Positions 7,505 to 48,748 of a stretch of DNA of 51,620 bases are shown here, in pieces. The stretch comes from Candidatus Fermentibacterota bacterium (GTDB lineage: Bacteria > Fermentibacterota > Fermentibacteria > Fermentibacterales > Fermentibacteraceae). The number at the start of each line of letters is the position of its first letter. The first letter of the stretch is position 1. Where the stretch lies: contig JAAYTY010000144.1 in NCBI GenBank assembly GCA_012523605.1, positions 1-51,620 on the forward strand. Reading direction: 5' to 3'. A program made the position numbers and the translations under genes. The notes under the pieces are model-generated. The model searched no databases. It saw nothing but the letters and a program-made list of their open reading frames with translations, and was not told where the DNA came from.

Positions 7505-8493
7505 GGAGGGGCAGAACCCTCCTCCAGCTCTCGATCGGCCTCGCCGTGGCGGGGCTCGCTCTGTGGCTGACCTACCGCAGGGTCCCCCCGGGGGATCTGC
7601 TGGATCTCCTGGAGGATGCGCGCTGGGGCTGGCTGCTGGTGGTCCTGCCGCCGCTCGCGGCGAGCTACGTGTTCAGGATCCTGCGATGGATGGTCCTGCT
7701 GGGACCGGTCAGGGCGGTCCGCTTCCGGGATGCTGCGTTCCCTCTTCTGGCTGGCTTCATGGTGAACTCGATCCTCCCGGCAAGGGCCGGCGAGATAGTG
7801 AGGGTTCTGCTCCTGTCACGGCGCACAGGCGTGCCGAAGGCTTCCGCGCTGGGCACGGTGGTTCTCGACAGGATATTCGACGGACTTACGCTGACGGCCA
7901 TGACGCTCGGCTGCATCGCCGGGCTCTGGTCCGGCCTGGGAGCCGGGGTCCGGCTCGGTCTGGTGGCGGCCAGCGCCATGTACGTCTTCATGCTCCTGTT
8001 CGCGGTGGCGCTGCGCAGATGGCGCGGCGGCGCCGCCCGGGCCGTCGCCCGGCCCCTGGCCCGGGCGGGCCTGAAGCGCCCCGCCGAGAAGCTGGAGAGT
8101 GTGCTCCTTTCGTTCTCCGAGGGACTGGCGACCATCCAGAGCGGCAGGGAGGTGCTCTTCCTCGCGCTGACCTCGGCAGGGGTGTGGGGAAGCCTCGCAC
8201 TCTCCATTTACCCGGTGTTCTACGCGCTCGGACTGCCGCTGGCATGGCACTACCCGGTGATTGTGCTCGTTCTGGCCGCCTTCGGCATGCTGGTCCCGAC
8301 ACCCGCCGGCACCGGGACTGTGCATGCCGCTCTCGCAGCTGTGCTCCCCGCAGTGACGGAGCTGACGACCGGGCAGGCCATGGTTCTCGCCCTCCTGTTC
8401 CATGCCACCCAGTTCCTGCCGGTCATAGCGGCAGGCATCGCGGCGGCGGTTCACGAGGGGGTGCGCCCTCTGGAAGTGGCGGAGGCCGGCTGA
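7501..8493 (+). CDS. Lysylphosphatidylglycerol-synthase TM (AglD2/YbhN-like) flippase-domain membrane protein
   Basis: RILRW, NSILPARAGEIVR, DRIFDG and PTPAGTG motifs with multiple TM helices. ATG 7501 overlaps the gmhA stop. Confidence 0.85.
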   Translation: MRRGRTLLQLSIGLAVAGLALWLTYRRVPPGDLLDLLEDARWGWLLVVLPPLAASYVFRILRWMVLLGPVRAVRFRDAAFPLLAGFMVNSILPARAGEIVRVLLLSRRTGVPKASALGTVVLDRIFDGLTLTAMTLGCIAGLWSGLGAGVRLGLVAASAMYVFMLLFAVALRRWRGGAARAVARPLARAGLKRPAEKLESVLLSFSEGLATIQSGREVLFLALTSAGVWGSLALSIYPVFYALGLPLAWHYPVIVLVLAAFGMLVPTPAGTGTVHAALAAVLPAVTELTTGQAMVLALLFHATQFLPVIAAGIAAAVHEGVRPLEVAEAG

Positions 8494-8585
8494 TCCGGCG
8501 CGCCAGGCTGGCCGCCCGGAACGGCCGCCGCCCGGAAATGCCATGTCATTGCATTCCACTGCAACCACTTGCCATGACAAAGATG

Positions 8586-8602
8586 CTGGCCTGATTGTTG
8601 CT
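8586..8602 (+). promoter_or_regulatory. Putative sigma54 (-24/-12) promoter
   Basis: CTGGCCTGATTGTTGCT, with GG (8588-89) and GC (8600-01) separated by exactly 10 nt, about 70 bp upstream of the FmdB start. Confidence 0.55.
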
Positions 8603-8672
8603 TGATCGAATCGCGTATCGTTTCCTGCGACCCTGAGGGCAGGGTCGGGCCCGAAATGAAACCGGAGGCACG

Positions 8673-8951
8673 ATGCCCACCTACGAGTACGAATGCGAAG
8701 GCTGTGGAAGCCGCTTCGAGCGTTTCCAGCAGATGACCGAGGCCCCGCTTACGAAATGCCCTTCCTGCGGAGGCAGCGTCAGGCGCATCATAGGCACCGG
8801 ATCGGGCATCATCTTCAAGGGGGCCGGCTTCTACGCCACCGACTACCGGAAAGGAGCCTGCCCCGAAGGGAAGGGCTCGTGCGAGGCCGCCAGGCCCTCC
8901 GACGACTCCGGAGGACATACCTGCTCCGGGGGATGCTGCCGAGACAAGTAG
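8673..8951 (+). CDS. FmdB-family zinc-ribbon regulatory protein
   Basis: MPTYEYECEGCG...KCPSCG...IIFKGAGFYATDY signature, Cys-rich tail, GGAGG ribosome-binding site. Confidence 0.9.
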   Translation: MPTYEYECEGCGSRFERFQQMTEAPLTKCPSCGGSVRRIIGTGSGIIFKGAGFYATDYRKGACPEGKGSCEAARPSDDSGGHTCSGGCCRDK

Positions 8952-9172
8952 GGCGGAGAGTCGGTCCGTCCGCCGCCGGTTCCCTTCTGCTCCGGCCGTG
9001 AGCTGCCTCTGATCCGCCTCTGACAGGGGAAGGACCACCCCCCGGCATGGTGCGGCGCCGGCCTCAGCCCGTGCCCGGCGCCCTGCGATCCGCGTTATCC
9101 CTGAACCCATCCGCCCCGCGCCGTTCTATATTCACGGCTCAGGCTGGTGACACCCAATCCCGGGGGGACCGG

Positions 9173-10513
9173 TTGAGCCCGAGAGCGCTCGCATGCATCC
9201 TGACAGCACTGGCCGCCGCATCCTTCGGCTGCGGCAGGTCCGCCGAGCCGGGCGGGGTCGTCGAGGTGGTGTTCTGGCACGCCATGGGAGGACCCCTGGG
9301 CGACGTGCTGGAGGACACCCTGATCGCCGAGTTCAACGCGACACATCCCGGCATCCGGGTGATCCCCGTCTCCATGGGGAATTACAGAGCCCTCAGCCAG
9401 AAGATCATGGCCGCCGCCATGGCCGGCGAACCGCCCGCCCTGGCGCAGGCCTACGAGACATGGACGGCACAGCTCATCAGGGGCGGGGCGATCGTGCCCC
9501 TGGATTCCATGATGGATCTGTCCCCCGCCTTCCGCGATTCGATCTGGCCGGACGTGTTCGACGTCTTCAGACGCGACAACACCTTCGGGGGGCGGATATA
9601 CAGCCTTCCCTTCAACAAGAGCGTGCCTCTCGTCTACTACAATGCGGACCTCTTCGACAGCCTGGGACTGTCGCCCGCGGAGACGTGGGAGGAGCAGAGG
9701 GAGCTCCTCGGGAGGCTCTGCCTGGACTCCAACGGGGACGGCGACCTGCTCGACGAGGGCGATCGATGGGGGGCGGGCATCACCGTGAGCGTCTGGACCT
9801 TCGAGTGCCTGCTGGCGCAGGCCGGAGGCAGTCTCCTCTCCGAAGACGGCACGGAGACCGCCTTCGACTCCCCGATGGGAATCGAGGCGCTGTCGTATCT
9901 CGAGTCGCTCCTCCACGAGGACCGATCGGTCTTCCTCGCCAGCGGTTTCGAGCACCAGAGAGCCTTCTCCGAGCGGAGGACCGGGCTGGTCGAAGGATCC
10001 GTGACCTCGCTGGCCTACCTGCTGGAGGACATGGAGAGGAGGGCCGAGAGCGGTCTTCCGACTTTCAGGATCGGAGTCGCGCCCCTGCCGGCGGGCCGCG
10101 AGCACGCGGTCTTCATAGCCGGGACGAACGTCGTCGTCTTCCGCTCCGACGATCCCCGCCGGGTGGCGGCCGCATGGGAATTCGCGACATGGTTCCTGGA
10201 GCCCCGTCAGCAGGCGAGATGGTTCGCCGGGAGCGGATACCTGCCTGCTGTGAGGTCCGCTCTCCGGGAGCCCGAAGCACTCGAGAAGATCGAGAGGCAC
10301 CCCGGGCTCGAGCGCGTTATCGGCCAGCTCGAATACGCGCGGTTCGAGCCCCAGACCACCGCCTGGTACGACGGCAGGGAGTTCCTCTCCGAAGCCGTGG
10401 AGATAGTGCTGTACGGCAGGATGTCGCCGGAGGAGGCCTTGGAGAGGGCCGCCCGGCTGACCGACGAAGAGATGCGTCTGGACGCCCGGTCTGACCGAAT
10501 GGAGGTCGAATGA
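9173..10513 (+). CDS. ABC transporter solute-binding lipoprotein (CUT1/UgpB-like)
   Basis: Lipobox AAASFGC, FWHAMGG, LPFNKSVPLVYYNAD, GTNVVVF, AAWEF..W and SGYLP. Likely TTG start at 9173. Confidence 0.9.
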   Translation: MSPRALACILTALAAASFGCGRSAEPGGVVEVVFWHAMGGPLGDVLEDTLIAEFNATHPGIRVIPVSMGNYRALSQKIMAAAMAGEPPALAQAYETWTAQLIRGGAIVPLDSMMDLSPAFRDSIWPDVFDVFRRDNTFGGRIYSLPFNKSVPLVYYNADLFDSLGLSPAETWEEQRELLGRLCLDSNGDGDLLDEGDRWGAGITVSVWTFECLLAQAGGSLLSEDGTETAFDSPMGIEALSYLESLLHEDRSVFLASGFEHQRAFSERRTGLVEGSVTSLAYLLEDMERRAESGLPTFRIGVAPLPAGREHAVFIAGTNVVVFRSDDPRRVAAAWEFATWFLEPRQQARWFAGSGYLPAVRSALREPEALEKIERHPGLERVIGQLEYARFEPQTTAWYDGREFLSEAVEIVLYGRMSPEEALERAARLTDEEMRLDARSDRMEVE

Positions 10514-11514
10514 AGCTGCTCCTTCTCGCCCTGCCGCTGGCGGCGGGTCCGGCTCTTGCAGTGACGGTGTCGGAGGCCCGAATGGATGCCGACGGGGACG
10601 GCCTGCCGGACCTCCTCGGGCAGACCGTGACCATAGAGGCCGTGGCCACCTGCGAACCGGACCTGTTCTCCGGGAGCGGCGTCTCCTTCTACGTCCAGGA
10701 CGCTGCGGCCGGCATAAACGTATATGCCTACGACCCGCCGTCCTTCCCCGTGGGGCCGGGCGACCTCCTCCGCATCACCGGCGAGATCGCTCAGTACAAC
10801 GGCCTCACGGAGATAGAACCCTCCTCGCCGGACGACTACGAGTACCTCGGTTCCCCCGGTGTTCCCGAGCCCGTCCAGCTCGCCAGGCACCAGGGAGTCT
10901 CGGAGCCCCTCGAGAGCATGCTCCTCAGGGCCGGAGACCCATCAGGCCCCGTCTGGGTGACTGTGGCGACCACGCCCTCGCAGTCCGGAGGCGGCTTCAA
11001 CTTCAGCGTCTGGAACGGGGAGACCGCCATCGCGGTCAGGGTGAACGGGACCACCGGAATCTCGGTGTCCGGGATCGAGCCGGGGGTGCGGCTCTTCCTC
11101 ACCGGAATCGGCGGCCAGTACGATTCCGAGCCCCCATATACCACCGGCTACCAGCTTCTGCCACGCTACCAGGAGGATCTCGCGTTCTACACCCCGTCCA
11201 TACCGGACTTCTTCCATCTCGACCTGCTGTCGGAATCCCCCTTCTCCCCCTCGTCGGGCGAGGCGATACTCATGGAATACGGGGGAGCGCCGGGGCTCAG
11301 GTTCACCCTGAAGGTGTTCGACAGGGCCGGAAGGGAGGTCGCCCGGCTGGCCAGCTCCAGGGCGGGGGGCGACGTCGTCGAATGGGACGGCAGGGACGAC
11401 AGCGAGGAGATCCTGCCGATTGGACCCTACATCGTCCTTCTCGAGGGGATAGCCCCCGACGGCGGGCGGCTCGTCACGACCGAGACGGTCGTGGTGGCCG
11501 CCGGCCTGGAATGA
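10510..11514 (+). CDS. Secreted protein with two OB-fold-like repeats and a C-terminal FlgD-Ig/T9SS-CTD-like domain
   Basis: Signal peptide; GQTVTIEAVAT..FYVQD...GINVY...GD...ITGEIAQYNGLTEI, an OB fold of the type found in YhcR/ExeM-like nucleases; a second repeat ending YQLLPRYQEDL; C-terminal PFSP..KVFDRAGREV..WDGRD...PIGPYI. Confidence 0.7.
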   Translation: MKLLLLALPLAAGPALAVTVSEARMDADGDGLPDLLGQTVTIEAVATCEPDLFSGSGVSFYVQDAAAGINVYAYDPPSFPVGPGDLLRITGEIAQYNGLTEIEPSSPDDYEYLGSPGVPEPVQLARHQGVSEPLESMLLRAGDPSGPVWVTVATTPSQSGGGFNFSVWNGETAIAVRVNGTTGISVSGIEPGVRLFLTGIGGQYDSEPPYTTGYQLLPRYQEDLAFYTPSIPDFFHLDLLSESPFSPSSGEAILMEYGGAPGLRFTLKVFDRAGREVARLASSRAGGDVVEWDGRDDSEEILPIGPYIVLLEGIAPDGGRLVTTETVVVAAGLE

Positions 11515-11524
11515 GGTGGTTCCC

Positions 11525-12343
11525 ATGAAAACGATGCTCTTCGCCGCTTCACTCGTGCTGGCCGCCGCCCCGCCCGCCCTCGCGGCCTTCGAAGAGCTGG
11601 AGCTGGGAGTCGCCGACCAGGCGATGGGCTCGACGGGCGTGATGGGGACTGGAGCTGTCTCGGTGCTTTCGAACCCCGCCTCTCCGGCCGGAAGCGCAGG
11701 CTGGTCGGTGACCGCCTCCAGCCGCCTGCCCTTCTCCATCACCGACCTCGCGACCCACGGTCTGGATGTCTCCATGCCCCTGCGCGGAACCTGGCGGGGC
11801 TCGGCGTCCATCCGGCAGTTCGGCTTCAGCGAGTACTCCGAGCAGATGGTGGCCGTGACCATCTCGGGAATGCTCGGGAGGGAGCTCGCCTTCGGGATCC
11901 AGCCCACCCTCGGAGCCGTGAGCATCGGCGACGGGGTTTCGAGCTACGGCTCGGCGACCGCCCTGTCGCTGAACGCCGGATTCCAGGCGAGGATCTGCGG
12001 GCGATGGAGGATAGGGGCGTCGGTCCGCAACCCGTTCGAGAGCGGCATCGGAGAGAGCGGAGAGCACCTCGAGAGGAGGATCGACGCGGGTGTGGCCTAC
12101 GAGCCCTCCGCCGGCATGGAATCCCGCTTCTCGTTGTCGAGGGACTTCCGCGGAACGAGGGTCCACGCCGGGCAGGCCGTCCCGGTCGGCCCTCTGAGCC
12201 TCATGGCCGGAGTCGGCACATCCCCGGTCACCATCTCCGGCGGGCTGTCGGCCTGCGTGTCCGGGGTGAGGCTGGAGTACGCGGTCCAGTCGCATCCCGA
12301 CCTCCAGCCCACGCACCAGGCCGGGATCACCTATGTCTTCTAG
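11525..12343 (+). CDS. Small outer-membrane beta-barrel, PorV/PorP(SprF)-like
   Basis: Signal peptide, A.AMG...NPA N-terminal motif, amphipathic strands, C-terminal HQAGITYVF (aromatic beta-signal). Alternative GTG start at 11516. Confidence 0.65.
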   Translation: MKTMLFAASLVLAAAPPALAAFEELELGVADQAMGSTGVMGTGAVSVLSNPASPAGSAGWSVTASSRLPFSITDLATHGLDVSMPLRGTWRGSASIRQFGFSEYSEQMVAVTISGMLGRELAFGIQPTLGAVSIGDGVSSYGSATALSLNAGFQARICGRWRIGASVRNPFESGIGESGEHLERRIDAGVAYEPSAGMESRFSLSRDFRGTRVHAGQAVPVGPLSLMAGVGTSPVTISGGLSACVSGVRLEYAVQSHPDLQPTHQAGITYVF

Positions 12344-14771
12344 CTTCCTGCTCGCGATCCTGGCCGCCGCCGGTCCTTTCGGCAGGGTGGACCTCAACAC
12401 GGCGACCCTGGAGCAGCTCCGCGCACTGGAGGGGATCACCGACGAGCAGGCCGACTCCATCTACTCGCGCGCGCTCTCGACGGGGGGATTCGCGGACATA
12501 TACGAGGTGGCGGAGATACCCGGCATGACTGCATCGAGCCTTGCGTGGCTGAGGGACAACTGCATGGTGTCGCCCCGCGCGGAAGGCTCTCTGAGCCCCG
12601 CGGTGATGGACCTCATGGAAAGGCTCGCGGTCGAGGACGGTCCCGGCGACGCAGCCGTGGACGAATGGGAGAACCTCCTGATCCGCCCGATGCCGGTGAA
12701 CGGCCTGAGGCACTGGGACCTCCGGATGCTCGACAGAGTGAGCATCGTGGACGCCGCCGCCGTCGAGCGGAGACTGCGCGATCTGGGCCCTGTCTCGGGC
12801 GTGGCTTCCCTTCGCGGGAGCGACGGCTTGAGCTACTACGGCTACAGGAATCTCAGGGACTATGTCGCAACCCGCGAGCTGGACCTCTCCAGCACCGACT
12901 TCTTCGGCGGACTGCGCGTGACCGTGGACGGGGGCGCAGGGCGGTCGGAGGGCGAAGGATCGCTGGCTGCGCGCCTGGACGACCTGGGCAGCGCAATCGG
13001 GGACATGGAGTCCGGAGGCAGGGACTATTCGGGCAGTCCCGTCGACAGCGCCGCGCTGTACGAACAGCTCGTTTCGGAGCGCGACGAGCTGGCCGGCGCC
13101 CGAGGCGTGACAGGAAGCGTTCAAAGGCTCCGATTGGGCCTCGGGGACAGGTGGAGAGGGGGCATCAGGCTCTCCCGGGGACGCTGGTCAACCGCCGGGC
13201 ACGGCCTCCTTTCCGGCATGGACATGGGCGTGATAAGCGAGACCTACGACGTCGCGAAGGCTTTCGCCTCCCTGCACCGCCTCGGACCGCTCCACCAGGT
13301 GATACTCGGGAACTACAGGCTCTCCCTCAACCAGGGCCTCCTGGTGGACAACGCCGACGAGCTGATGAGCCGCTCTCTCTACAGGCCCCGGGGTCTGCAT
13401 CCCGACCTCACCTCGACACGGCAGGCCGCGTTCACCGGGGCGGCGTGCGAGGTGCGCAGCGGGCCTCTGGTGGGATACGCCTTCGTCTCGTCGGCCCCCC
13501 GGGACGCCATCATGAACTCCGACGGCACGCCGAACTCGCTCGTGCTCTCCCGCTGGCGCACCTCCGCCATGGCCGGAGCACTGCAGGAGACCGCCGCGGG
13601 AGGCTACGGCTATTTCGACCTGGGCGGCTTCCTTCCCTGCGGGACCTTCGTCGGAGCCGGAGCGCTGACCGTCTCCTGGAGCGACAGCCTGGTCCCCGAC
13701 CCGGAATTCCTGGACATTCCGAACGACGCGGAGGTCTGGAACTGCCCGGAGTACTCCGTCATGCCCCAAGGCGACGCCCTGTCGGCCTGGTCGGTCTCGG
13801 GGCAGACCGTCCTGGGCGGATTCGGCGTCGAGGGGGAGGCCGCGATGCAGGACAACGACGCCATGGCGGCCGTAGGCGGCGCAAGATGGCAGAACGACTG
13901 GTTCTACCTGCTCTGCTCGATAAGGCACTACGACCTGGAATACACAAACCCCTACTGCAGGGGATTCGCGGAGCAGAGCAGATTCGACGATACGGTGTTC
14001 GAGAAGCCCTACTATCTGAACGACCCCTCGGCGGCCGACCTCGCGGACTGGCCGGTTCCGAAGCCCGAGGAGGGGATCTACCTGGAATCCCGCTTCCAGG
14101 TCAGCCGGCAGATTCTGTTTCCCAAGGTCTATCTGGATGTGTGGCGCTCGATCCCCTGGGGCTTCGAGAACTACAGGTTCCAGGGGGAGCTGGAATACAG
14201 GCCCGTGTTCCCCCTCCGGTTCAGGCTGAAGTACAAGCTGCAGGACAAGACGAAGATGCAGGATCTCCTGCCGACAAGCTCGGTGACCCACGAGGCCACG
14301 CTGAGAACCATCGTCCTCCCGGCGGGCGGGGACTACTTCGAAATCGGCGTGCGGGCGGGGCTGGTGGAGCTGACGCCCAACCCTCTCTACACCGACGACA
14401 GGCTGATGAGCGGGGGATTCCTGAGCGCAAGGTGGGAGCACCGCTTCACGCCCGGGTTCTCCGTGCTGGGCGGAACGACGCTCTGGACCACCGACGGGAT
14501 GAGCCAGTGGGAGTTCGAGGACACGGGAATCGACTTCCTGGACGGCAGGGGCACGAAGTTCTACGTGACTGTCAAGGAGCAGATATCCGACAACATCCAG
14601 ATACGCCTCCGGCTGCTGCGCAAGGACACCTTCTTCCCGAGGAACGGGCTCTACAGGCCCGATCCCGAGGACCAGTACTACTACGAGGGCGACCCCGGCA
14701 GCCCCGTGAGGGATTTCGGCGATCACGCGGAGAGCTACGGTATCAACTGCCAGCTCGATCTGCGCTGGTAG
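12333..14771 (+). CDS. ComEA-type helix-hairpin-helix protein fused to a large outer-membrane beta-barrel
   Basis: VDLNTATLEQLRALEGI...A..I...R...GGF.DI.E...IPG (ComEA HhH pair), a second HhH-like unit PVN..WDLRMLDRVS, GNY.L..NQGL, and C-terminal QLDLRW. Confidence 0.8.
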   Translation: MSSSFLLAILAAAGPFGRVDLNTATLEQLRALEGITDEQADSIYSRALSTGGFADIYEVAEIPGMTASSLAWLRDNCMVSPRAEGSLSPAVMDLMERLAVEDGPGDAAVDEWENLLIRPMPVNGLRHWDLRMLDRVSIVDAAAVERRLRDLGPVSGVASLRGSDGLSYYGYRNLRDYVATRELDLSSTDFFGGLRVTVDGGAGRSEGEGSLAARLDDLGSAIGDMESGGRDYSGSPVDSAALYEQLVSERDELAGARGVTGSVQRLRLGLGDRWRGGIRLSRGRWSTAGHGLLSGMDMGVISETYDVAKAFASLHRLGPLHQVILGNYRLSLNQGLLVDNADELMSRSLYRPRGLHPDLTSTRQAAFTGAACEVRSGPLVGYAFVSSAPRDAIMNSDGTPNSLVLSRWRTSAMAGALQETAAGGYGYFDLGGFLPCGTFVGAGALTVSWSDSLVPDPEFLDIPNDAEVWNCPEYSVMPQGDALSAWSVSGQTVLGGFGVEGEAAMQDNDAMAAVGGARWQNDWFYLLCSIRHYDLEYTNPYCRGFAEQSRFDDTVFEKPYYLNDPSAADLADWPVPKPEEGIYLESRFQVSRQILFPKVYLDVWRSIPWGFENYRFQGELEYRPVFPLRFRLKYKLQDKTKMQDLLPTSSVTHEATLRTIVLPAGGDYFEIGVRAGLVELTPNPLYTDDRLMSGGFLSARWEHRFTPGFSVLGGTTLWTTDGMSQWEFEDTGIDFLDGRGTKFYVTVKEQISDNIQIRLRLLRKDTFFPRNGLYRPDPEDQYYYEGDPGSPVRDFGDHAESYGINCQLDLRW

Positions 14772-14784
14772 AGCGGAGGGTGAC

Positions 14785-15978
14785 ATGACATTGCTCGGCG
14801 GCTTGCTCGCTCTCGCCGCGATGACCGGCGGACTCCCGGAGGACTGTCTCCTGGGCACTCCCGGATTTCCGGTCACCGCACGCTCCCTCGCGATGGGCCG
14901 GGCGGAGTTCATGGATCCCTCGCCCATGGGCGCCCTGGCGAACCCGTCGGCGGCCGTCTCCGCCGGCGTCGGGCTGTCTCTCTGCGCCTCCGCCGGGATG
15001 GACCTGGAGATGGAGAAGAGGACCCGGACCGTCTACGATTCATTCGGGAGTTCCATCGGGGAGGCCGAGCACTCCTTCGACCGTTCGGCCGACCTCTTCC
15101 CGGGAGGCGTGGCCGCTTCGCTGGCCGGTTTCGACGGCATGCCCCGGGGGCTCGGGCTCGCGGCCGGCTGGAGGGCGCGGAACGGCTTCGGCTACGACTG
15201 GGACAGGGAGGTGAGGAGCGAGTACTACGCCCTGCTCGGAAGCGAGGCCCTCTCCATATCCGGCACGGCCGGGGAACTCTGCGCCTCGGCGTCGTTCTCT
15301 CCCCTCGATGCTCTCTCCCTCGGATTGGGGGCGGGCTGGCTCTCGTGCACGCGGGAGGAGACCTGGAGGCAGATCTGGGTGGACGAGAGCATTCCCGACG
15401 TACTCGAGACCCAGGAATCCGACCTCGAGGTCGTGACGGTCCGCGCCGCGTTCACCGCGCGCCCCTCCCGAAGGGTGACGGCTTCTGCGGGAGTCGAGGC
15501 CCCACTCTCGGCCGGATGGTCCGGAGACGCCGACGGCCCGCTCGACCTTCCGCCCCTCGCCCGCGCCGGCTTCCTCTGGATTCCCGGAAACTCCCTCAGG
15601 AGCGTCTTCACCGCGGAATTCTCCTACAGGGCGATGTCCGGTGCGAGATTCGACGGCGCGGACATGGGTCTGCGTGACTCCTGGAGCGCGTCCGCCGGCG
15701 TGGAGAACAGCCTGCCCGGAGGCGGGCCCGAATGCCGCTTCGGCTTCAGATACGACCGCTCCCCCATTGCGCGCTGCCTCGACTGCGTGTCCGTGACCGC
15801 CGGTCTCGGCTTCGACCTCTCCGGATGGACCCTGGATGCCGGAGGCCTTTTCTCCCCGAGGACGTGGGAGCAGGTGGATGTCGGCTCGCTCCCGTCCTTC
15901 TCCGAAGGCGACAGCCTCTCCGTCGAGGAGACGGAGACTGTCCTGCTGCTCTCACTGAGCCGCAGGATCTCGCTGTAG
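14785..15978 (+). CDS. FadL/PorV-like outer-membrane beta-barrel
   Basis: Signal peptide, ARSLAMG...ANPS motif, strand-rich body including RFGFRYDRSP and TAGLGF. Confidence 0.65.
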   Translation: MTLLGGLLALAAMTGGLPEDCLLGTPGFPVTARSLAMGRAEFMDPSPMGALANPSAAVSAGVGLSLCASAGMDLEMEKRTRTVYDSFGSSIGEAEHSFDRSADLFPGGVAASLAGFDGMPRGLGLAAGWRARNGFGYDWDREVRSEYYALLGSEALSISGTAGELCASASFSPLDALSLGLGAGWLSCTREETWRQIWVDESIPDVLETQESDLEVVTVRAAFTARPSRRVTASAGVEAPLSAGWSGDADGPLDLPPLARAGFLWIPGNSLRSVFTAEFSYRAMSGARFDGADMGLRDSWSASAGVENSLPGGGPECRFGFRYDRSPIARCLDCVSVTAGLGFDLSGWTLDAGGLFSPRTWEQVDVGSLPSFSEGDSLSVEETETVLLLSLSRRISL

Positions 15979-15988
15979 GGCTGGCGTC

Positions 15989-17587
15989 GTGCGGACGGCG
16001 GCGGCGCTCCTCCTGCTCTCGGCTGCTTCGGCGCCTTGCCTCGCGAGGGTTTTCACTCTGGACATACTGCACACGAACGACGTCCATGGAGGGATCGTCT
16101 CCCGCGACGCCACGTTCCTCAACCCGGACTTCCCGCCCGAGATCGGCGGCGCCGCCTGGCTCGCCTCCTATGTGGACTCGGTCAGAAGGGAGGCGGCCGG
16201 AACCGGGGGGTACGTACTCCTCCTCGACGCCGGTGACATCTACCAGGGCACCCCCGTCGGCGGCTACGACCTCGGAGCTTCCGTGGTGCGGTGGATGAAC
16301 TTCGTCGGCTACGATGCCATGACGCTCGGGAACCACGATTTCGACGACGGAGCGGCCAACGCCCTCGCGATCGCCGCGGCCGCGGACTTTCCGGTGCTGT
16401 CCTGCAACTTCGTCGAGGAAGCCACCGGGCTTCCCCCCTGCGGCATCGAGCCCATGACATTCTTCGAATTCGAGGGCGTGAAGATCGCGCTCATCGGACT
16501 CTCGACCTCCGATACGTGGGGGCTGGTGGACCCTGCGCTGCTGGAGGGCTACTCCTTCCTCGACGAGGAGGAGTCCGTCGGAGCGGCGATGGAGGAGGCC
16601 CGCCGCAGCGGCGCCGACATCGTCTTCGTCCTGTCCCACCTGGGTCAACCCTCGGATCCCGGAAGATACGTGGAGTCCGTGAGACAGGCCTGGATCTCGG
16701 GGGAGGAGTTCGACAAGGAGTTCGCCCTCAACAACGCCGAACTCTCCTCGCTCCTGCCGGGAATCGCCCTCATCGTGTCGGGCCACATCCACTACGGCCT
16801 TGCGCGCCCCTGGGTGAACCCCTTCACCGGAACGATCGTGGTGCAGGGCTATGCGAACGGGACGGGTGTGGGGCACATCAGGCTGCTGATAGACTCCGAG
16901 GCCCGCACGGTGACAGGGTACGAACTGCCGCGCGGCGAGGAGATCGTCAACCTCCTCCACGACGAGTTCCAGCCGGACCCCGAGGCTCTGGCGCTGATCG
17001 AGTCCTTCAGGACCGTGGCCGAGGCGGGCATGGACGAGGTGATAGGAGAGGCCCTGGAGGAGATCCCCAGGGGAGGCGCCGAGCATCCGATGGGAAGGCT
17101 GGTCGCCGATGCCGTGCTGGAATGTACGGGGGCCGACGTTGCCCTTGTGAACCGCGGGGGGATCAGGTCGTCCATTCCCAGGGGCTTGATCACGCCGAGG
17201 ATGATCTACGAGGCCATTCCGTTCGAGGAGGACCTCTATCTCGTCGAGGTGACCGGAGCCCAGCTCAGGAGGATTCTGGAGACCGGGATGCAGGGGCGCA
17301 GGCGCGACATGGAGCCGGCTGGATTCACCGCGGTGAGAAACCAGGCTCTGCCGGACATGGCCAAGATCGAATCCCTGATCGTGGGTGGCGAACCGGTCGA
17401 TTCGTCCAGAGCCTACGTCCTCGCCACCACGGGCTATCTAGTCCAGGGCAACGTTGGATACGACGTCATGAGGGAGTTCGAGGCGGTGCCCGCGGGATGC
17501 ACCCTGTTCGACGCGGTGGTCGCGTATGTGAAGGCTCACAGCCCCCTCGAGCCGGACGAGGTTCCCAGAATCCGATGGACGGAGTAG
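15989..17587 (+). CDS. Secreted bifunctional metallophosphatase/5'-nucleotidase (UshA family)
   Basis: ILHTNDVHG, LLDAGDIYQG, YDAMTLGNHDFD, LSHLG, IVSGHIH, and a C-domain with N.GGIR and PF. Signal peptide present. Confidence 0.93.
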   Translation: MRTAAALLLLSAASAPCLARVFTLDILHTNDVHGGIVSRDATFLNPDFPPEIGGAAWLASYVDSVRREAAGTGGYVLLLDAGDIYQGTPVGGYDLGASVVRWMNFVGYDAMTLGNHDFDDGAANALAIAAAADFPVLSCNFVEEATGLPPCGIEPMTFFEFEGVKIALIGLSTSDTWGLVDPALLEGYSFLDEEESVGAAMEEARRSGADIVFVLSHLGQPSDPGRYVESVRQAWISGEEFDKEFALNNAELSSLLPGIALIVSGHIHYGLARPWVNPFTGTIVVQGYANGTGVGHIRLLIDSEARTVTGYELPRGEEIVNLLHDEFQPDPEALALIESFRTVAEAGMDEVIGEALEEIPRGGAEHPMGRLVADAVLECTGADVALVNRGGIRSSIPRGLITPRMIYEAIPFEEDLYLVEVTGAQLRRILETGMQGRRRDMEPAGFTAVRNQALPDMAKIESLIVGGEPVDSSRAYVLATTGYLVQGNVGYDVMREFEAVPAGCTLFDAVVAYVKAHSPLEPDEVPRIRWTE

Positions 17588-17592
17588 CGGAG

Positions 17593-18990
17593 ATGGCGCC
17601 GGGCGGCCCGGGGAGAGTCGTAGTCCTGGGTGCCGGCCTCGCCGGCCTCAGCGCCGCCGACGTCCTCGTTTCTCACGGCGTGCGAACCGTCGTCGTCGAG
17701 AAGGAGGCCGCACCGGGAGGACTCGCCGCCACCTGCAGGGTCGGCGGATTCCATTTCGACTTCGGCCCCCACCGCTTCCACACCAGGAACCCCGCCGTCC
17801 TCGCCAGAGTGTCCGCCCTGCTGGGAGGCGACCTGCTCCAGGTAGAGAGGTTGAGCCGCATTCGTCTGCTCGACCGGTACTTCCTCTATCCCCTGAGCCT
17901 CGGAGACGTGCTCCGGAGGATGCCCCTCCGCAAGGGGGCCGCCATGATGGCCAGCTATATGGCCAGGAGGGGCAGGAGGCTCTTCGGCGGGCTTCCCGAC
18001 GACAGCTTCGAGACCTGGGTGGTCAACCGCTTCGGCCGCTGCCTCTACGACATCTACTTCGGTCCCTACACCGCCAAGCTCTGGGGGATCCCCCCTTCGA
18101 GCCTCTCGCCGGACTGGGCCAGCCAGCGCATAACAGTGCCCAGCCTCACGGGGCTCGTGAGGGAGACGCTCTTTCCCCGGGGGGAGAAGGGCGCCAGGAG
18201 CCTGGTGAGCACGTTCCACTACCCCAGGGGCGGCATCGGGAGGATCTCGGAGGCCTTCGCCGCGAGAGTGAGGGAGGGCGGGGGGGCCCTGATGACATCG
18301 GTCGAACCCCTCTCGATATCGCGCGGTCCCGGAGGATTCGTGGTGGAGACGACCGCAGGCGCATTGGAAGCCGACGGTCTGATAAGCTCGATTCCCGTGA
18401 CAAGGCTGGCCGAGCTCGCGGCCCCCATGCTGGACGAACGGTCCCGCGAGGCCGCCGCCTCGCTCTCATACAGGAGCATCGTGTTCGTCACGCTCAGGCT
18501 CGCGAAGCGTCCGGAACCGCGTGACCACTGGATCTACACACCGGAGGACTGCTACAGGTTCAACAGGCTCTCCATCCCGGAGAACTTCGATCCGTCGGTC
18601 TCGGAGTCCGGCGGGCAGGTCGTCTTCGAATTCACCTGCCAGGAGGGCGACCAGATCTGGAACGGGGGCGAAGCGCTGGCGGCGGAATGCGTGAGCGGAG
18701 GAGAGAGGCTCGGTCTCTTCCGGACCGGCGAGGTCATGGGGCATGCCGTCACGAGGCAGGCTCATGCCTACCCGATCTACGACAGGGGGTACGAGGTCAG
18801 ATCGGGAATCCTCCTCGAGGCTTTCGACGCCCTCCCCGGAATCGTCACGTGCGGGAGGCAGGGCCTTTTCCGCTACAACAACATGGACCACTCGATAGAG
18901 ATGGGCGAGTACGCAGCTCTCGAGCTCCTCGGCATCGGAACCCTTCGCGAGCGGTTCGACTGGACCAGAAGCACATGGGCCGACGGCTGA
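17593..18990 (+). CDS. FAD-dependent oxidoreductase (HemY/amine oxidase-like, envelope-associated type)
   Basis: VVVLGAGLAGLSAA, GGLA.T, FDFGPHRFH, F.YPRGG.G, AYPIY and GRQGLFRYNNMDHS. The ORF-track start at 16291 is a shadow extension. Confidence 0.85.
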   Translation: MAPGGPGRVVVLGAGLAGLSAADVLVSHGVRTVVVEKEAAPGGLAATCRVGGFHFDFGPHRFHTRNPAVLARVSALLGGDLLQVERLSRIRLLDRYFLYPLSLGDVLRRMPLRKGAAMMASYMARRGRRLFGGLPDDSFETWVVNRFGRCLYDIYFGPYTAKLWGIPPSSLSPDWASQRITVPSLTGLVRETLFPRGEKGARSLVSTFHYPRGGIGRISEAFAARVREGGGALMTSVEPLSISRGPGGFVVETTAGALEADGLISSIPVTRLAELAAPMLDERSREAAASLSYRSIVFVTLRLAKRPEPRDHWIYTPEDCYRFNRLSIPENFDPSVSESGGQVVFEFTCQEGDQIWNGGEALAAECVSGGERLGLFRTGEVMGHAVTRQAHAYPIYDRGYEVRSGILLEAFDALPGIVTCGRQGLFRYNNMDHSIEMGEYAALELLGIGTLRERFDWTRSTWADG

Positions 18991-19496
18991 CGCCGTTCAC
19001 GAGCCCCTCGGCCCGTGCCGCCGTGTTCGTCGTCGCGTCGCTCCCGGCGCTGGCGATGCTGGCCGCATCCCTTGTCCAGCCGGTGGTCGGAGGGGATTTC
19101 GGGGCGGCGCTGGGGCGCTTTCTGGGCTACACCTGTCACCGCCTGCCTCGGCGCTGCCTGACCCTTCCCTGGGGTCTGAGCGGGCTGTGCGCGAGATGCA
19201 CCGCGTTCTGGGCCGGGCTCGGGACCGGGACTGCCGTGACGGGCATTACGGGAATGGGCGTGCGCCGCCCCCTCGACGGGCTGGCCATGACCGCCCCGAT
19301 GGCGCTCGACGGGCTCCTCCAGGCTGTCGGACTCTACGAGAGCCTCAACGCCGTCCGGGTTGCGACCGGCCTGGCGGGAGGCTGGGGAACGGGCATCATG
19401 TTCGTCTGGCTGTTCTGCCTCCTGCTCGAAAGACGCTTCCCCGCCCGTGACCGGATCCGGCAGACCGGCCGGAGAGCGCGGAACCGCCGGGCCTGA
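18975..19496 (+). CDS. DUF2085-like membrane protein
   Basis: CHRLPRRC...LCARCTAFWAG, PMALDGLLQ and N.VRVATG match the DUF2085 pattern as I recall it. Overlaps the upstream stop. Confidence 0.7.
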   Translation: MGRRLTPFTSPSARAAVFVVASLPALAMLAASLVQPVVGGDFGAALGRFLGYTCHRLPRRCLTLPWGLSGLCARCTAFWAGLGTGTAVTGITGMGVRRPLDGLAMTAPMALDGLLQAVGLYESLNAVRVATGLAGGWGTGIMFVWLFCLLLERRFPARDRIRQTGRRARNRRA

Positions 19497-19533
19497 CAGC
19501 CCGGGCCGGCCCCGGACCCGCCGGCCGTCGGTG

Positions 19534-19562
19534 TTGACAAATCATACCGCCGTATGAAGATT
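19534..19562 (+). promoter_or_regulatory. Promoter -35 (TTGACA) with palindrome TCATAC-CGCC-GTATGA in the spacer
   Basis: Perfect TTGACA at 19534-39 and an inverted repeat at 19542-19557. The -10 is weak (AAGATT at 17-bp spacing). Confidence 0.45.
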
Positions 19563-19687
19563 CTGGACCGGCCGGGCCTTCGAGGATCGGCCGCTTTCAC
19601 CTGTCGGGAGAGGCCGGGCTCCGTCGTCTCGGGCCCGCTGTTGCTTTCCTGCAAGAACGCACCACACTTGCGGAAAGGACGAGGTCC

Positions 19688-21037
19688 ATGCTGAAGAGAA
19701 AAGTGCTGATACTCGGCGCGGCAGGGCGCGACTTCCACAACTTCAACACGGTTTTCAGGGGGAACGAGTCTTTCGAGGTCGTGGCCTTCACCGCCGCTCA
19801 GATTCCCGACATCGCCGGCAGGAGGTATCCGTCCGAGCTGGCAGGCGGCCTTTACCCCGGAGGAATCCCGATCATCCCCGAGAACGAACTCGAGGAGACC
19901 ATCGCCTCGCGTTCGGTGGACCTGTGCGTGATGGCCTACTCCGACGTGTCGGACAGCCACGTGATGGCGCTGGCAAGCCGCTGCAACGCGGCTGGAGCGG
20001 ATTTCACGATGATCGGCGTGCGCTCGACCATGCTGCAGAGCGGCAAGCCGGTGATCGCGGTGACAGCGGTCCGAACCGGCTGCGGCAAGAGCCAGACCAC
20101 CCGCAGGGTGGCCGAACTGCTCCGTGCGGCCGGGAAGAAGGTCGTCGTCGTCCGCCATCCGATGCCCTACGGTGATCTGGCGGCCCAGAAGGTCCAGCGC
20201 TTCGCAACGATAAAGGATCTCGAGAAGCACCGCTGCACCATAGAGGAGATGGAGGAGTACGAGCCCCACATCGCCCGCGGCATGGTCGTCTACGCCGGAG
20301 TGGACTACGAAGCGATCCTTCGCGAGGCCGAGAAGGAGGCCGACATCGTCCTCTGGGACGGCGGCAACAACGACACCTCCTTCTTCAGGCCCGACCTCAC
20401 GATAACCGTGGTGGATCCCCACAGGCCCGGAGACGAGATCTCCTACTACCCCGGCCAGACCAACCTCAGGCTCGCCGACGTGGTGGTCATCAACAAGATC
20501 GACTCGGCCTACCCCGAGGACGTCAACGAGGTGCGCGGCAACGTCCGTCGGACGAATCCCCGCGCGCGGATAATCGAAGCCGCCAGCCCCGTGAGCGTGT
20601 CCGATCCGGGCGTCATCCTGGGGAAGACCGTTCTGGTGGTCGAGGACGGCCCGACCCTCACCCACGGGGACATGGAGTACGGCGCGGGCTTCGTGGCGGC
20701 CGAGCGCTTCGGGGCGACCGGCACGGTGGATCCCCGCGAGTTCGCGGTTGGATCCATCGCCGACACGTTCGACAGGTACTATGCCGATCGTGAGGAAGCC
20801 CTGGTGCTCCCCGCGATGGGCTACGGCGCCGAGCAGATGAAGGACCTGGAGGCCACGATCCGGAACTGCGAATGCGACGCAGTCATAGTCGCGACTCCGA
20901 TAGACCTCGGCCGGGTCATAAGGATCGACAAGCCATTCGTAAGGGTGACGTACGACCTCGAGGAGATTGGAAAGCCCGACCTGGCGGAGGTGCTGGAGCC
21001 CTTCACCGGGGCGGGTAAGCCGCGGAAGGGGATGTAG
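19688..21037 (+). CDS. arcE: COG2403 P-loop ligase (cyclic 2,3-diphosphoglycerate synthetase superfamily), most likely arginine synthetase ArcE type
   Basis: ILGAAGRDFHNFN, AFTA.QIP, AYSDV, AVRTGCGKSQ, RHPMPYG, TIEEMEEYE, WDGGNND, EDGPTLTHG and LPAMGY. From memory, the GAAGRDFHNFN start is the ArcE-type signature. Confidence 0.75.
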   Translation: MLKRKVLILGAAGRDFHNFNTVFRGNESFEVVAFTAAQIPDIAGRRYPSELAGGLYPGGIPIIPENELEETIASRSVDLCVMAYSDVSDSHVMALASRCNAAGADFTMIGVRSTMLQSGKPVIAVTAVRTGCGKSQTTRRVAELLRAAGKKVVVVRHPMPYGDLAAQKVQRFATIKDLEKHRCTIEEMEEYEPHIARGMVVYAGVDYEAILREAEKEADIVLWDGGNNDTSFFRPDLTITVVDPHRPGDEISYYPGQTNLRLADVVVINKIDSAYPEDVNEVRGNVRRTNPRARIIEAASPVSVSDPGVILGKTVLVVEDGPTLTHGDMEYGAGFVAAERFGATGTVDPREFAVGSIADTFDRYYADREEALVLPAMGYGAEQMKDLEATIRNCECDAVIVATPIDLGRVIRIDKPFVRVTYDLEEIGKPDLAEVLEPFTGAGKPRKGM

Positions 21038-24173: not shown

Positions 24174-24902
24174 ATGGAGAAGCAGGCTGCTCTTACGGAG
24201 AGCATGGAGGACTACCTGCTCTCCGTCTACAGGATAGTGCGATCCGGTCGGAAGCCGCGCGTCACCGACATTGCGAAGAACAGGTCCGTGAGCCCGGCGA
24301 GCGTATGCCAGGCCCTCCGGAAGCTCGACAGGGACGGCCTCGTCCGCTACTCCTCGGGAAGGAGCATCACCCTCACCGGGGAGGGCGCGAAGGCGGCCCA
24401 GAGGCTGGCGTCGCGGCACGACTTCCTGCTGTTCTTCCTCCGCGACATCCTGGGCGTCGAGCCCTCCGCGGCCGAGAGCGACGCCTGTGCGCTCGAGCAC
24501 CACGTGAGTTCCGACACCCTCTCCCATCTCGTGGCCTTCGCCCAGTTCACCGAGCTCCGGATGCTCGGAGGGGACAAGATCGGCGCCGCGTTCAGGGGCG
24601 CCGAGCCCACCGGCTGCCTCGCCGCGGCTCCGCCCGGCCGGTGCAGGAGGCGCAGGGGCGGTATGGGCCTCGCGCTGTCCGACCTCCCTCCGGGGGCCAG
24701 GGCGCGCATACTGCATCTGCACTCCGACTGCACCGCGAGGCAGAGGCTCGCCGAGATGGGGCTCCTTCCAGGAGTCGAGGTGGAGGTGGTCCGCCGCGCC
24801 CCGCTGGGAGGGCCGGTGGAGATAAGGCTCGAGAACTCCTCCCTGACCCTTCGCAGGCGCGAGGCCGCGTCCGTCGAGGTCGAGGAGGCTCCTGCCGAGT
24901 GA
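24174..24902 (+). CDS. DtxR/MntR-family metal-dependent repressor with C-terminal FeoA domain
   Basis: LTESMEDYL, R.TDIA...VSPASV, RH..L..FL and DACALEH; FeoA-type RLAEMGL.PG.EV.V.R.APLGGP. Confidence 0.92.
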   Translation: MEKQAALTESMEDYLLSVYRIVRSGRKPRVTDIAKNRSVSPASVCQALRKLDRDGLVRYSSGRSITLTGEGAKAAQRLASRHDFLLFFLRDILGVEPSAAESDACALEHHVSSDTLSHLVAFAQFTELRMLGGDKIGAAFRGAEPTGCLAAAPPGRCRRRRGGMGLALSDLPPGARARILHLHSDCTARQRLAEMGLLPGVEVEVVRRAPLGGPVEIRLENSSLTLRRREAASVEVEEAPAE

Positions 24903-38867: not shown

Positions 38868-39273
38868 CGCCGCGGAGGGCGAGTCCTACGACGATCTGAT
38901 AGGGAAGATCGCCCGTGAGATAGTCAGCCGCGAACTCACAGTTCCGGCGATCATGTTCCTCGAGTCGGTTAAGCCCCTGTCGTTCCTCGGGAACCAGCTT
39001 CTCGTGTTCCTGGATCCGGTGGTCTCCCTCGTGGTGACCTCGGGGGAATACCGGCGCTTCGTCAGGATGCTCGAGGACAGGGAGAACCTCGAAAGGCTGA
39101 TATCCGTGATAGAGGAGGAAAACGCCCTCGAAGAGGCCCGCAGGAGGGAGGAGAGGAGCAGGCGCCCCCGGCGCGGGCTTCGCGCCTTCTTCGGGCGCCG
39201 TGGAGGGCCCGCAGGGGAGCAGAAGGGAGACGGCATTGGCCGGCAAGGAGATCACCAGGATACTGGCAACTGA
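38824..39273 (+). CDS. Conserved-looking hypothetical protein
   Basis: KIA..IV.R.L.VPAIMFLES.KPL.FLGNQ...F..P core and a charged tail. GGAGG ribosome-binding site before TTG 38824. Confidence 0.7.
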   Translation: MGLSRQGPWGTVPADAAEGESYDDLIGKIAREIVSRELTVPAIMFLESVKPLSFLGNQLLVFLDPVVSLVVTSGEYRRFVRMLEDRENLERLISVIEEENALEEARRREERSRRPRRGLRAFFGRRGGPAGEQKGDGIGRQGDHQDTGN

Positions 39274-41101: not shown

Positions 41102-41105
41102 GAGG

Positions 41106-42227: not shown

Positions 42228-42270
42228 GTCCGGGCATGTCCTTGCCCTGCTGTCAGGTTCTATCCATGAC

Positions 42271-42292
42271 CCGGGGAGTTTCGGCTCCCCGG
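42271..42292 (+). other. Intercistronic RNA hairpin with UUCG loop
   Basis: CCGGGGAGT-TTCG-GCTCCCCGG: a 9-bp stem with one G-U pair, in the 100-bp gap inside the module. Confidence 0.6.
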
Positions 42293-42327
42293 TTCCATTC
42301 TGAGGTCCTGTCGATCGGAGGAGTGGA

Positions 42328-45778: not shown

Positions 45779-45961
45779 CACTTCGGGCAGTGTGCCCGTG
45801 ATGCGGCGTTCCGCCCCGTTGGGGCGGCTTTGTATGGGTTTGCTCGGCAGTGTTCGCTTCTTGATAGAGGTTGCGCCCCCCGGGAAAGGGAGGTGGACCA
45901 GCTCCGGAGGGCGGAGGCTTTCGACTGAGGTCCCCGATTCTTGGGAAAGGAGAAAAAGACC

Positions 45962-48661: not shown

Positions 48662-48688
48662 AAGGCGCAGGCTGAACAAACGAAGGCG

Positions 48689-48715
48689 GGCGGTTCCCCT
48701 TCCGGGGGGACCGCC
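48689..48715 (+). terminator. Intercistronic stem-loop between TBDR and exbB
   Basis: GGCGGTTCCCC-TTCCG-GGGGGACCGCC: an 11-bp stem with one G-U pair and no U-tract. Confidence 0.55.
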
Positions 48716-48748
48716 TCCCGACAGCGACCGACAAGGAGAAGTCCTTAG

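Follow-up and report, generated by a model that had tools for sequence, protein, structure and literature searches.

What is accomplished by six abutting genes whose products all appear to be exported, and which bring together an OB-fold protein, helix-hairpin-helix (HhH) modules of the ComEA type, three outer-membrane barrels, a solute-binding protein and a 5'-nucleotidase? The question is raised by a 51,620-nucleotide stretch of Candidatus Fermentibacterota bacterium (assembly GCA_012523605.1, contig JAAYTY010000144.1, positions 1 to 51,620 of the forward strand), the whole of which is hereafter called the window; the genes, designated g1 to g6, occupy positions 9173-17587 on the plus strand. 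The answer favored here, with a probability of about 0.6, is that the six genes encode the outer part of a machine for the capture, uptake and salvage of extracellular nucleic acid. This machine is most likely independent of both TonB and pili. The proposal is built upon the gene calls, the folds and domains of the encoded proteins, the conservation of the cluster and a predicted docking of g2 on g3.

Conservation of the six-gene cluster

The window is contig C53 of a 2.39-Mb metagenome-assembled genome (MAG) that is 95% complete and has a GC content of 67%. Because high-GC DNA contains many spurious open frames, frames were picked by third-position GC, which yielded the six genes listed in Table 1. 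The junctions from g1 to g6 are, in order, -4, +1, -11, +13 and +10 nucleotides, and a 680-nucleotide gap lies upstream of g1. A hydrophobic N-terminus was observed on all six proteins (12-residue Kyte-Doolittle maximum 2.0-2.4); this is the sole basis for assigning an export signal, and in g1 the hydrophobic stretch is followed by a lipoprotein-like Cys. The first-pass annotation, made from the letters of the window, had described six tightly coupled genes that all carry export signals, and these data bear out the coupling and agree with the export signals.

A scan of one genome per species gave 62 loci, of which 60 were in Fermentibacterota and two on contigs labeled Desulfuromonas (31-44% identity). 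Counting only Fermentibacterota loci that reach the respective place, g2 (53 loci), g3 (56), g5 (55) and g6 (53) were found without exception and g1 in 47 of 48; the complete set, in colinear order, was present in 44 of the 45 loci that extend over every place. Scanning metagenomes with a distant clade of the g4 family returned 405 confirmed relatives, from which 80 loci were kept; the g4 relative in these loci is about 25% identical to the g4 of the window. By tblastn, and again counting only contigs that reach the expected place, these distant loci contained a g2-like gene in 36/38 cases, a g3-like gene in 46/52, a g5-like gene in 45/65 and a g6-like 5'-nucleotidase gene in 50/54. The core of g2, g3, g4 and g6 was found together in 27 of 33. 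The search for synteny proposed in the first-pass annotation therefore upheld co-occurrence of the whole cluster inside the phylum and of its core far from it. The kept loci come from named digester and sediment MAGs and from marine-labeled contigs; as to taxonomic range, the distant g4 relatives offer only a few source names, namely Calditrichaceae and a JGI "ComE-like" label.

Pfam annotation was run on seven of the 80 distant loci. The g2 slot was filled by an LTD-bearing protein in all seven, with a tRNA_anti-codon OB or DUF5689 match in six (not L147), and FlgD_ig was seen on the g2-slot protein in two (L147 and L152) and on a neighboring LTD protein in L154 and L189. The g4 slot held an HHH_3 protein of 820-880 residues in all seven. 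Toluene_X (PF03349), which g5 itself does not match, was matched by the g5-slot gene in four of the seven (2.6e-10 to 2.9e-5), and an unnamed protein of about 300 residues and a 5'-nucleotidase filled the remaining slots. EEP nuclease genes adjoin the module in L154 and L189, and extra LTD-tail proteins are found in L147 and L152.

A further variant occurs in L062, one of the Desulfuromonas-labeled loci, whose five slots hold, in order, a 992-residue protein, a 287-residue barrel, an 807-residue HHH_3 protein, a 360-residue protein and a nuclease/phosphatase slot. The 992-residue protein combines an ExeM/NucH N-terminal region (3e-21), DUF5689 (7.4e-9), a tRNA_anti-codon OB (3.4e-6) and a tail of the type IX secretion system (T9SS); the g3 homologue matches TraF_2 (3.8e-5), and the last slot opens with a NucT-like PLD nuclease, after which comes a UshA-like phosphatase. 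A T9SS-tail protein with an HhH-barrel cluster would be odd for the group named by the labels of L062 and L063 (Desulfuromonas/Desulfuromonadaceae), and both may be misbinned contigs of an organism of the Fibrobacterota-Chlorobiota-Bacteroidota (FCB) type.

Table 1. Positions of the six genes and their domains in the window, and the genes of a second operon on contig C86 of the same genome
Feature	Position	Strand	Description
g1	9173-10513	+	446 residues, TTG start; CUT1-type UgpB-like lipoprotein solute-binding protein
g2	10510-11514	+	334 residues; exported OB-fold protein with T9SS-type C-terminal domain
g2 first OB fold	10555-10875	+	residues ~16-122
g2 Ig-like C-terminal sorting/anchoring domain	11209-11505	+	residues ~234-332
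g3	11516-12343	+	275 residues; small outer-membrane barrel of the PorQ/PorV/PorP kind
g4	12333-14771	+	812 residues; large outer-membrane barrel with N-terminal HhH modules of the ComEA type
g4 first HhH module	12384-12557	+	residues 18-74; HHH_3, position from genome search
g4 barrel	12900-14768	+	residues ~190-812; ~24 long strands (DSSP of the model)
g5	14785-15978	+	397 residues; FadL/PorV-like barrel
g6	15989-17587	+	532 residues; exported UshA-like 5'-nucleotidase/phosphoesterase
C86 gene 1		-	362 residues; ComEA-type HhH and ComEC/Rec2-type metallo-beta-lactamase (TIGR00361, 1.8e-33)
C86 gene 2		-	UgpA-like permease
C86 gene 3		-	UgpE-like permease
C86 gene 4		-	307-residue barrel of the PorV/PorQ family; PorV_fam 152 bits, cut-off 90

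Predicted structures and family matches of the six proteins

The product of g4 matched HHH_3 (PF12836) with an E-value of 7.7e-8 and 32.8 bits, over the cut-off of 27, and gave only 23.3 bits against the cut-off of 53.1 for TIGR00426. Residues 16-80 of the AlphaFold2 model superpose on ComEA of G. stearothermophilus (8dss; VIA Z 11.1, root-mean-square deviation (rmsd) 1.5, 65 aligned residues, 28% identity). A second helical module extends in the model to about residue 175, and two HHH_3 stretches were observed in relatives. The model as a whole has a predicted local distance difference test score (pLDDT) of 70.8 and a predicted TM-score of 0.66, and its remainder folds as a barrel of about 620 residues. 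The barrel is closest to the PapC usher pore (VIA Z 15.1, rmsd 5.3, 365 aligned, 10% identity), followed by FimD (Z 13.9), and a Foldseek search of the model returned only generic barrels with TM-scores near 0.3. The resemblance to the chaperone-usher pore concerns the size and shape of the barrel only, as the usher sequence model was not matched. Assignments of g4 as BamA, LptD or an usher were likewise dropped, given that no POTRA, LptD or usher family match was obtained and the likeness is at barrel level. No match to Plug, TonB_dep_Rec or CarboxypepD_reg (Pfam) was found in any of the six proteins. Whereas ComEA is a small soluble or membrane-anchored protein, the modules in g4 form the N-terminal end of a large barrel protein whose length is kept in relatives: the family comprises 111 clusters (50% identity) at E<=1e-30, and its near-length members (n=55) are mostly about 810 residues long. 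The ComEA-HhH barrel recognized in the first-pass annotation is thus supported by the domain match, the superposition and the barrel model.

For g2, a model folded with 16 relatives had a pLDDT of 71.3. Residues 16-122 form an OB fold that aligns with the RPA OB domain 3e0e_A (VIA Z 12.0, rmsd 1.9, 84 aligned), with further VIA matches to anticodon-binding domains of AspRS (Z 11.7) and to the HIN domains of p205 and p204 (Z 11.0-11.2). The top Foldseek match was p204 HINab bound to double-stranded DNA (E 1.5e-5, but with a TM-score of only 0.23), and HIN domains of the p202, p204, p205 and AIM2 types were among the Foldseek and VIA matches. The tandem OB architecture originally proposed for g2 is plausible from this model, in which the first OB fold is firm and the second beta domain has low confidence. 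Pfam matches in the family (n=16) were tallied as FlgD_ig in 16, CHU_C in 13, tRNA_anti-codon OB in 6, DUF4131 in 5 and DUF5689 in 1; the single DUF5689 match had an E-value of 0.021, and the homologous region in L062 and L152 matched at 7.4e-9 and 1.3e-5, respectively. FlgD_ig was found on g2 itself at 1.2e-5 and 25.7 bits, just under the cut-off of 27. The tail of g2 is structurally closest to the C-terminal domain (CTD) of PorU (VIA Z 11.2) and then to that of PorZ (Z 9.5).

In the T9SS of Porphyromonas gingivalis, the pairs PorQ-PorZ and PorV-PorU consist of a FadL-superfamily barrel that holds the Ig-like CTD of its partner (6za2, 5m11). A similar arrangement was predicted for g2 and g3, whose modeled complex scored 0.88 versus 0.01 for the best of three controls. 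Of 157 solved complexes, 116 attain this mark, as do 2 out of 215 pairs that are mismatched; these rates hold only roughly here since own alignments were used in the prediction. The runs agreed in at least 87% of contacts, the pLDDT of the partner was at least 86, and the predicted interface places residues 242-334 of g2, within its CTD, on the loops of g3. The modeling of the OB protein with a barrel suggested in the first-pass annotation has in this pair given a positive outcome. A FadL-superfamily fold and a CTD-bearing partner are accordingly found together in g3, the partner by prediction only. The resemblance to the Porphyromonas pairs lies in the g2 tail and its predicted seat on g3; unlike PorV and PorQ, g3 and g5 are unmatched by the models of those families and are tied to this cluster rather than to general secretion. 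One SprA_N, 31 Por_Secre_tail and 29 FlgD_ig matches were found in the genome, so a T9SS-like export route is available for g2.

The Atlas model of g3 has TM-scores of 0.89-0.92 to clusters named PorV/PorQ, TraF-like or DUF5723 and of 0.90 to a 370-residue Chlorobiota fusion of a barrel with HhH, and that of g5 has a TM-score of 0.87 to DUF5723/Toluene_X clusters. These folds agree with the PorV/PorP-like and FadL/PorV-like barrels named for the two genes at the outset. Neither g3 nor g5 matched a family model in NCBIfam at E<=0.01 (including PorV_fam, PorQ and PorV) or in Pfam at E<=10 (including PorV and PorP_SprF), and PDB sequences, when searched with profiles built from g2, g3 and g5, gave chance-level matches only. 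The possibility that g5 is the general PorV of the organism was dropped, as better PorV-family candidates are encoded elsewhere in the genome. A paralogue of g3 (28% identity) that runs off the contig end was observed on contig C186 (L092, 8317-9249, plus strand); its C-terminal end is a ComEA-like HhH motif, and by analogy this barrel with an HhH tail may be a counterpart of the Riemerella HhH protein described below.

The g1 product belongs to the wider SBP_bac_8 (5.5e-30) and SBP_bac_1 (7.1e-26) families. Its best NCBIfam match is the UgpB equivalog (NF008211), at 110.7 bits versus a cut-off of 411, so that the UgpB-like solute-binding lipoprotein of the first reading is retained at family level and falls far under the equivalog cut-off. 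The closest solved relatives are the 7c14/7c0f series (3.1e-41), with UgpB entries next. The series 7c0f-7c19 presumably represents the dinucleotide (U3G)-binding protein of Thermus thermophilus. A 2025 study sets a T. thermophilus U3G-binding protein beside UgpB among phosphate-recognizing binding proteins (PMC12718374). The g1 protein therefore resembles the UgpB/U3G branch of CUT1 in its best family match and in the order of its solved relatives, and differs from it in its distance from the UgpB cut-off. A tblastn search of the genome returned no other CUT1 binding protein of this type. The 5'-nucleotidase assignment of g6 was supported by 5_nucleotid_C (3.8e-28) and Metallophos (1.1e-10), both over their cut-offs, which together with a hydrophobic N-terminus make up the UshA-type architecture. 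UshA itself (NF007109) was matched at 3.4e-53 with 181 bits, short of the equivalog cut-off of 600, so that g6 is UshA-like at family level.

A second operon and the surroundings of the cluster

The window cluster encodes no inner-membrane permease. Permeases, together with a nuclease-type domain, were found in an operon on contig C86 (L091, 1325-5530, minus strand), which was reached by an HHH_3 search of the genome (Table 1). Its first gene encodes a fusion of HhH with a metallo-beta-lactamase (MBL) domain, hereafter HhH-MBL. The open frame at L091 2274-3410 (minus strand) belongs to no family and was rejected, the real gene being the second permease, which is read in a different frame. The operon has neither a binding-protein gene nor an ATPase gene. 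The two permeases are the only UgpA/UgpE-like pair in the genome (tblastn), and like g1 they match Ugp models below the equivalog cut-offs (110.7 vs 411, 128.1 vs 335 and 108.2 vs 297 bits for the three). The HhH-MBL gene was present in 61 of 61 Fermentibacterota genomes searched, the four-gene order was kept in nine of the ten other Fermentibacterota genomes examined, with the tenth lacking the permeases, and a LexA gene lies divergently beside the operon in 10 of 10 genomes examined. In the metagenome loci, tblastn matches to HhH-MBL proved to lie on the HhH region of g4 itself, without an MBL gene, and were discarded.

In five distant loci (L119, L146, L147, L148 and L152) a Ugp-type permease and a binding protein lie directly upstream of the module, and L142 contains the binding protein only. 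The module is linked to g1 and the Ugp-like permeases twice over, by these five loci and by the single set of binding protein and permeases in the genome of the window. The C86 operon would thus supply the nuclease and the inner-membrane step that are missing from the window.

At its 3' end the g1-g6 operon may extend further. A gene for a FAD/NAD-binding amine-oxidase-like protein without an export signal (17575 or 17593 to 18990) either adjoins g6 or overlaps its last codons; this gene occurs downstream in only part of the related loci and is missing in Aegiribacteria-type loci, where DUF2085 directly follows. A scan for consensus promoters and terminators over 8300-19800 returned 0 promoter-like sites and 2 terminator-like sites, both intragenic (3.4 expected by chance), and is uninformative on the operon ends. 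More than 0.9 of the sequence words recur in four sludge-metagenome runs of a single study, which are possibly the source sample; among the sequencing runs listed, none is of RNA.

Elsewhere in the window, an open frame at 1-1431 that runs off the window start contains TatD_DNase (residues 31-274) and Radical_SAM (294-461), as either a fusion or two genes in frame. A DtxR-type repressor fused to FeoA (242 residues) is directly followed by FeoB at 24174-26932, and a MutL-like PF13941 protein of the glutamate-mutase-associated type, an unnamed 373-residue gene product and a DUF6754 protein are encoded in a row at 39200-43542. Positions 45941-51481 encode a 906-residue CarboxypepD_reg, Plug and TonB-dependent receptor (45941-48661) and then ExbB, ExbD and TonB. 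This receptor has an architecture like that of DdbC, a transporter introduced below; it lies 28 kb from the cluster and outside it, with no OB or nuclease gene adjacent.

Proposed function, rival explanations and related systems

From the folds, domains and gene neighborhoods described above, we infer the following scheme of binding, transport, catalysis and order of events. The g2 protein would be exported by a T9SS-like system and held at the surface by its CTD on g3, where its OB/HIN-like domains would bind DNA or RNA. The polymer or large fragments of it would reach the periplasm through the barrel of g4, with its approximately 24 strands, and the two ComEA-like HhH modules, if placed on the periplasmic side, would hold the strand and bias its movement inwards, as is thought for free ComEA. 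The HhH-MBL protein of the C86 operon, with its ComEC-type domain, would cut the polymer in the periplasm; g6 would strip phosphate from nucleotides; and g1 would deliver products of the phosphodiester type, such as di- or oligonucleotides, to the permeases of the UgpA/UgpE kind on C86. The remaining barrel, g5, could be a second anchor for surface components, as PorV is, or a channel for bases or nucleosides.

Several points weigh against this scheme. Nucleic-acid binding by g2 and g4 is predicted from likeness of fold and domain, and OB folds also bind sugars and proteins. The second beta domain of g2 (residues ~130-200) was poorly modeled, with low confidence, and the score of the g2-g3 complex could stem from likeness to solved T9SS barrel-partner complexes rather than from true binding. 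How wide the g4 pore is, that it lacks a plug and where its HhH modules lie relative to the membrane are all predictions drawn from a model of middling confidence. No nuclease domain was matched in the six window proteins (Pfam, NCBIfam), the top solved relative of g1 is labeled only as a "sugar ABC transporter" protein, and an ATPase for the importer was not identified. The g1 gene is a looser member of the cluster: L062 lacks it, and among the 80 distant loci it turned up in just 6. Within Fermentibacterota, the flanking genes (RmlD-like, SIS, LPG-synthase-like and DUF2085) are syntenic as well, so that synteny inside the phylum is non-specific and the weight falls on the distant loci. Finally, one study describes DNA as a poor sole source of carbon, nitrogen or phosphorus for B. 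thetaiotaomicron (PMC12478041), and "food" may therefore be too simple a purpose even for that related system.

A role in natural transformation, compatible with salvage, would explain several of the same observations: g2 would act as the receptor and g4 as the conduit for pilus-independent DNA uptake of the sort proposed in Riemerella anatipestifer, and ComEC would import one strand. The ComEA-type modules of g4 and the probable DUF5689/HIN-like character of g2 are consistent with this role, as are the ComEC and DprA encoded elsewhere in the genome and the LexA gene that diverges from the HhH-MBL operon. In Riemerella, transformation is reported to depend on each of three proteins, namely a DUF5689 protein, the barrel paired with it and a protein with HhH (PMC8459023), and the ddb locus discussed below is described as related to that system (PMC12478041). 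The near constancy of the 5'-nucleotidase (50/54 distant loci, 53/53 in the phylum), the EEP and PLD nucleases and the Ugp-type importer for small solutes point instead to consumption, since such functions destroy the polymer or import small products and do not preserve a transforming strand. The genome also contains a secretin and six matches to ATPases of the pilus/type II secretion kind, so that a canonical uptake route is available. Transformation as the function of the cluster is on balance unlikely. The first-pass annotation had contrasted the cluster with pilus-based competence on the grounds that the window lacks comEC and pilin genes; that contrast is softened by the ComEC, DprA, secretin and pilus-type ATPases found outside the window. 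Its surface-to-periplasm pathway for nucleic acids as a nutrient was reinforced in its nucleic-acid theme by the co-located LTD/OB/DUF5689, EEP/PLD and Ugp-type genes, with nutrition and transformation both left in play as the purpose.

The barrels invite a different explanation, in which g2, g3 and g5 are ordinary parts or cargo of T9SS or attachment, g4 is an unrelated porin-like protein, the HhH and OB resemblances have no bearing on nucleic acid, and the cluster might serve another surface polymer or adhesion, for example to extracellular DNA (eDNA) in biofilms. The PorV/PorQ/FadL-type folds of g3 and g5, the T9SS-type tail of g2 and its predicted docking on g3, and the SprA_N match and dozens of CTD proteins in the genome all accord with it. 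It is nevertheless distinctly improbable: the NCBIfam PorV/PorQ models (E<=0.01) that leave g3 and g5 unmatched do match the 307-residue barrel of C86, and the HhH barrel, the OB/LTD proteins and the 5'-nucleotidase are kept together across lineages in which g4 is only about 25% identical, a distance over which a chance neighborhood would not persist. Scavenging of small organophosphates, with g6 acting on free nucleotides, g1 and the permeases importing glycerol-3-phosphate or glycerophosphodiesters, and the barrels serving as general diffusion channels, is very improbable. UgpB, UgpA and UgpE are indeed the best family matches of g1 and the two C86 permeases, g6 is UshA-like and the window cluster has no nuclease, but all three Ugp matches fall far under their equivalog cut-offs and the nearest solved relatives of g1 are not UgpB. 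It also has no place for the conserved OB/LTD surface protein, for the ComEA modules of g4, for an HhH-MBL gene next to the permeases or for the nucleases of other loci. Each of these last two explanations accounts for fewer of the conserved parts than does the salvage of extracellular nucleic acid.

A literature search for the cluster or the g4 family, with subscription-only papers outside its scope, found no description of either, and the passages searched in papers on Fermentibacteria contain no mention of nucleases, competence or outer-membrane proteins. The first-pass statement that no named system of this composition is known has to be amended, as related ones exist. The nearest were ddb, the Riemerella genes, ExeM and the Izemoplasma loci. 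The ddbABCDEF locus of B. thetaiotaomicron (Sharan et al., PNAS 2025) is reported to be required for DNA depletion; its secreted nucleases act with the TonB-dependent transporter DdbC (CarboxypepD_reg, Plug, TonB_dep_Rec), which is paired with the DUF5689 protein DdbD, itself likened to the p202 HIN DNA-binding domain (PMC12478041). Both ddb and, putatively, the present cluster are compact loci of exported proteins for exogenous DNA in a diderm of the FCB group, and both set a surface protein beside an outer-membrane barrel; the DUF5689/HIN-like, tandem-OB character of DdbD is probably shared by g2. Nucleases belong to both systems, inside the locus in ddb and here in distant versions or in the second operon. 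The two differ in that the window cluster itself encodes no nuclease; in the conduit, which is the TonB-dependent DdbC in one case and in the other a putative plug-less barrel of about 24 strands fused to ComEA-type HhH; and in the surface proteins, which are lipoproteins in ddb, whereas g2 has a T9SS-type tail predicted to sit on a PorQ-like barrel. The FadL-like barrel, the 5'-nucleotidase and the UgpB-like binding protein are additions beyond ddb. The cluster stands outside the Ddb family, with which it has the logic and probably the type of receptor in common.

The transformation genes of Riemerella anatipestifer (Huang et al. 2021) comprise, in the passages of that paper, RA0C_RS04920 (DUF5689/DUF5017), RA0C_RS04915 (a CarboxypepD_reg barrel) and RA0C_RS02645 (HhH) (PMC8459023). 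As far as those passages go, they share with the present cluster the combination of an outer-membrane barrel with an HhH DNA-binding protein and a receptor, which in g2 is probably of the same DUF5689 type, and both are pilus-independent by composition. In contrast to g4, their HhH protein is encoded on its own at a different locus, and their barrel belongs with the TonB-dependent receptors; transformation is the function demonstrated, and a 5'-nucleotidase and a binding protein are not part of the system as described there. A third comparison is offered by the extracellular nucleases ExeM and NucH, built of LTD, OB and EEP domains, as in Shewanella ExeM (PMC6085458), and by the "DNA-degradation loci" of Izemoplasmatales for the use of eDNA (PMC8289736). 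In the passages seen of both reports, exported LTD/OB proteins, 5'-nucleotidases and ABC binding proteins are likewise grouped for eDNA; no dedicated set of outer-membrane barrels is described in those passages, and the g2 of the window has neither LTD nor the EEP catalytic domain.

A broader and more tentative proposal concerns the g4 family, which could represent a previously unrecognized class of outer-membrane nucleic-acid translocon, plug-less and free of TonB and pili, in which periplasmic ComEA modules ratchet the polymer inwards. Together with a PorQ-anchored OB/HIN receptor, it might serve Fermentibacterota, Calditrichota and further uncultured lineages of the FCB type as their standard gate for eDNA, feeding salvage by way of the HhH-MBL nuclease, the 5'-nucleotidase and a Ugp-like importer of oligo- or dinucleotides and, given ComEC, transformation. 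How pilus-and-secretin systems carry DNA across the outer membrane is understood, and in Bacteroidota such a passage has recently been proposed for TonB-dependent transporters of the DdbC type; if the reading of g4 given here is true, a third solution would be added, new to the competence field, in which the barrel carries ComEA modules itself. The g4 protein is a concrete and testable member of a family that is not rare, with 111 clusters and 405 relatives in one metagenome scan. The split Ugp-like importer beside a ComEC-type nuclease domain further suggests that small phosphodiester products are taken up by a route that has scarcely been studied. Anoxic sediments and digesters contain a large pool of phosphorus and nitrogen in the form of extracellular DNA, and the cluster may therefore mark its consumers there.

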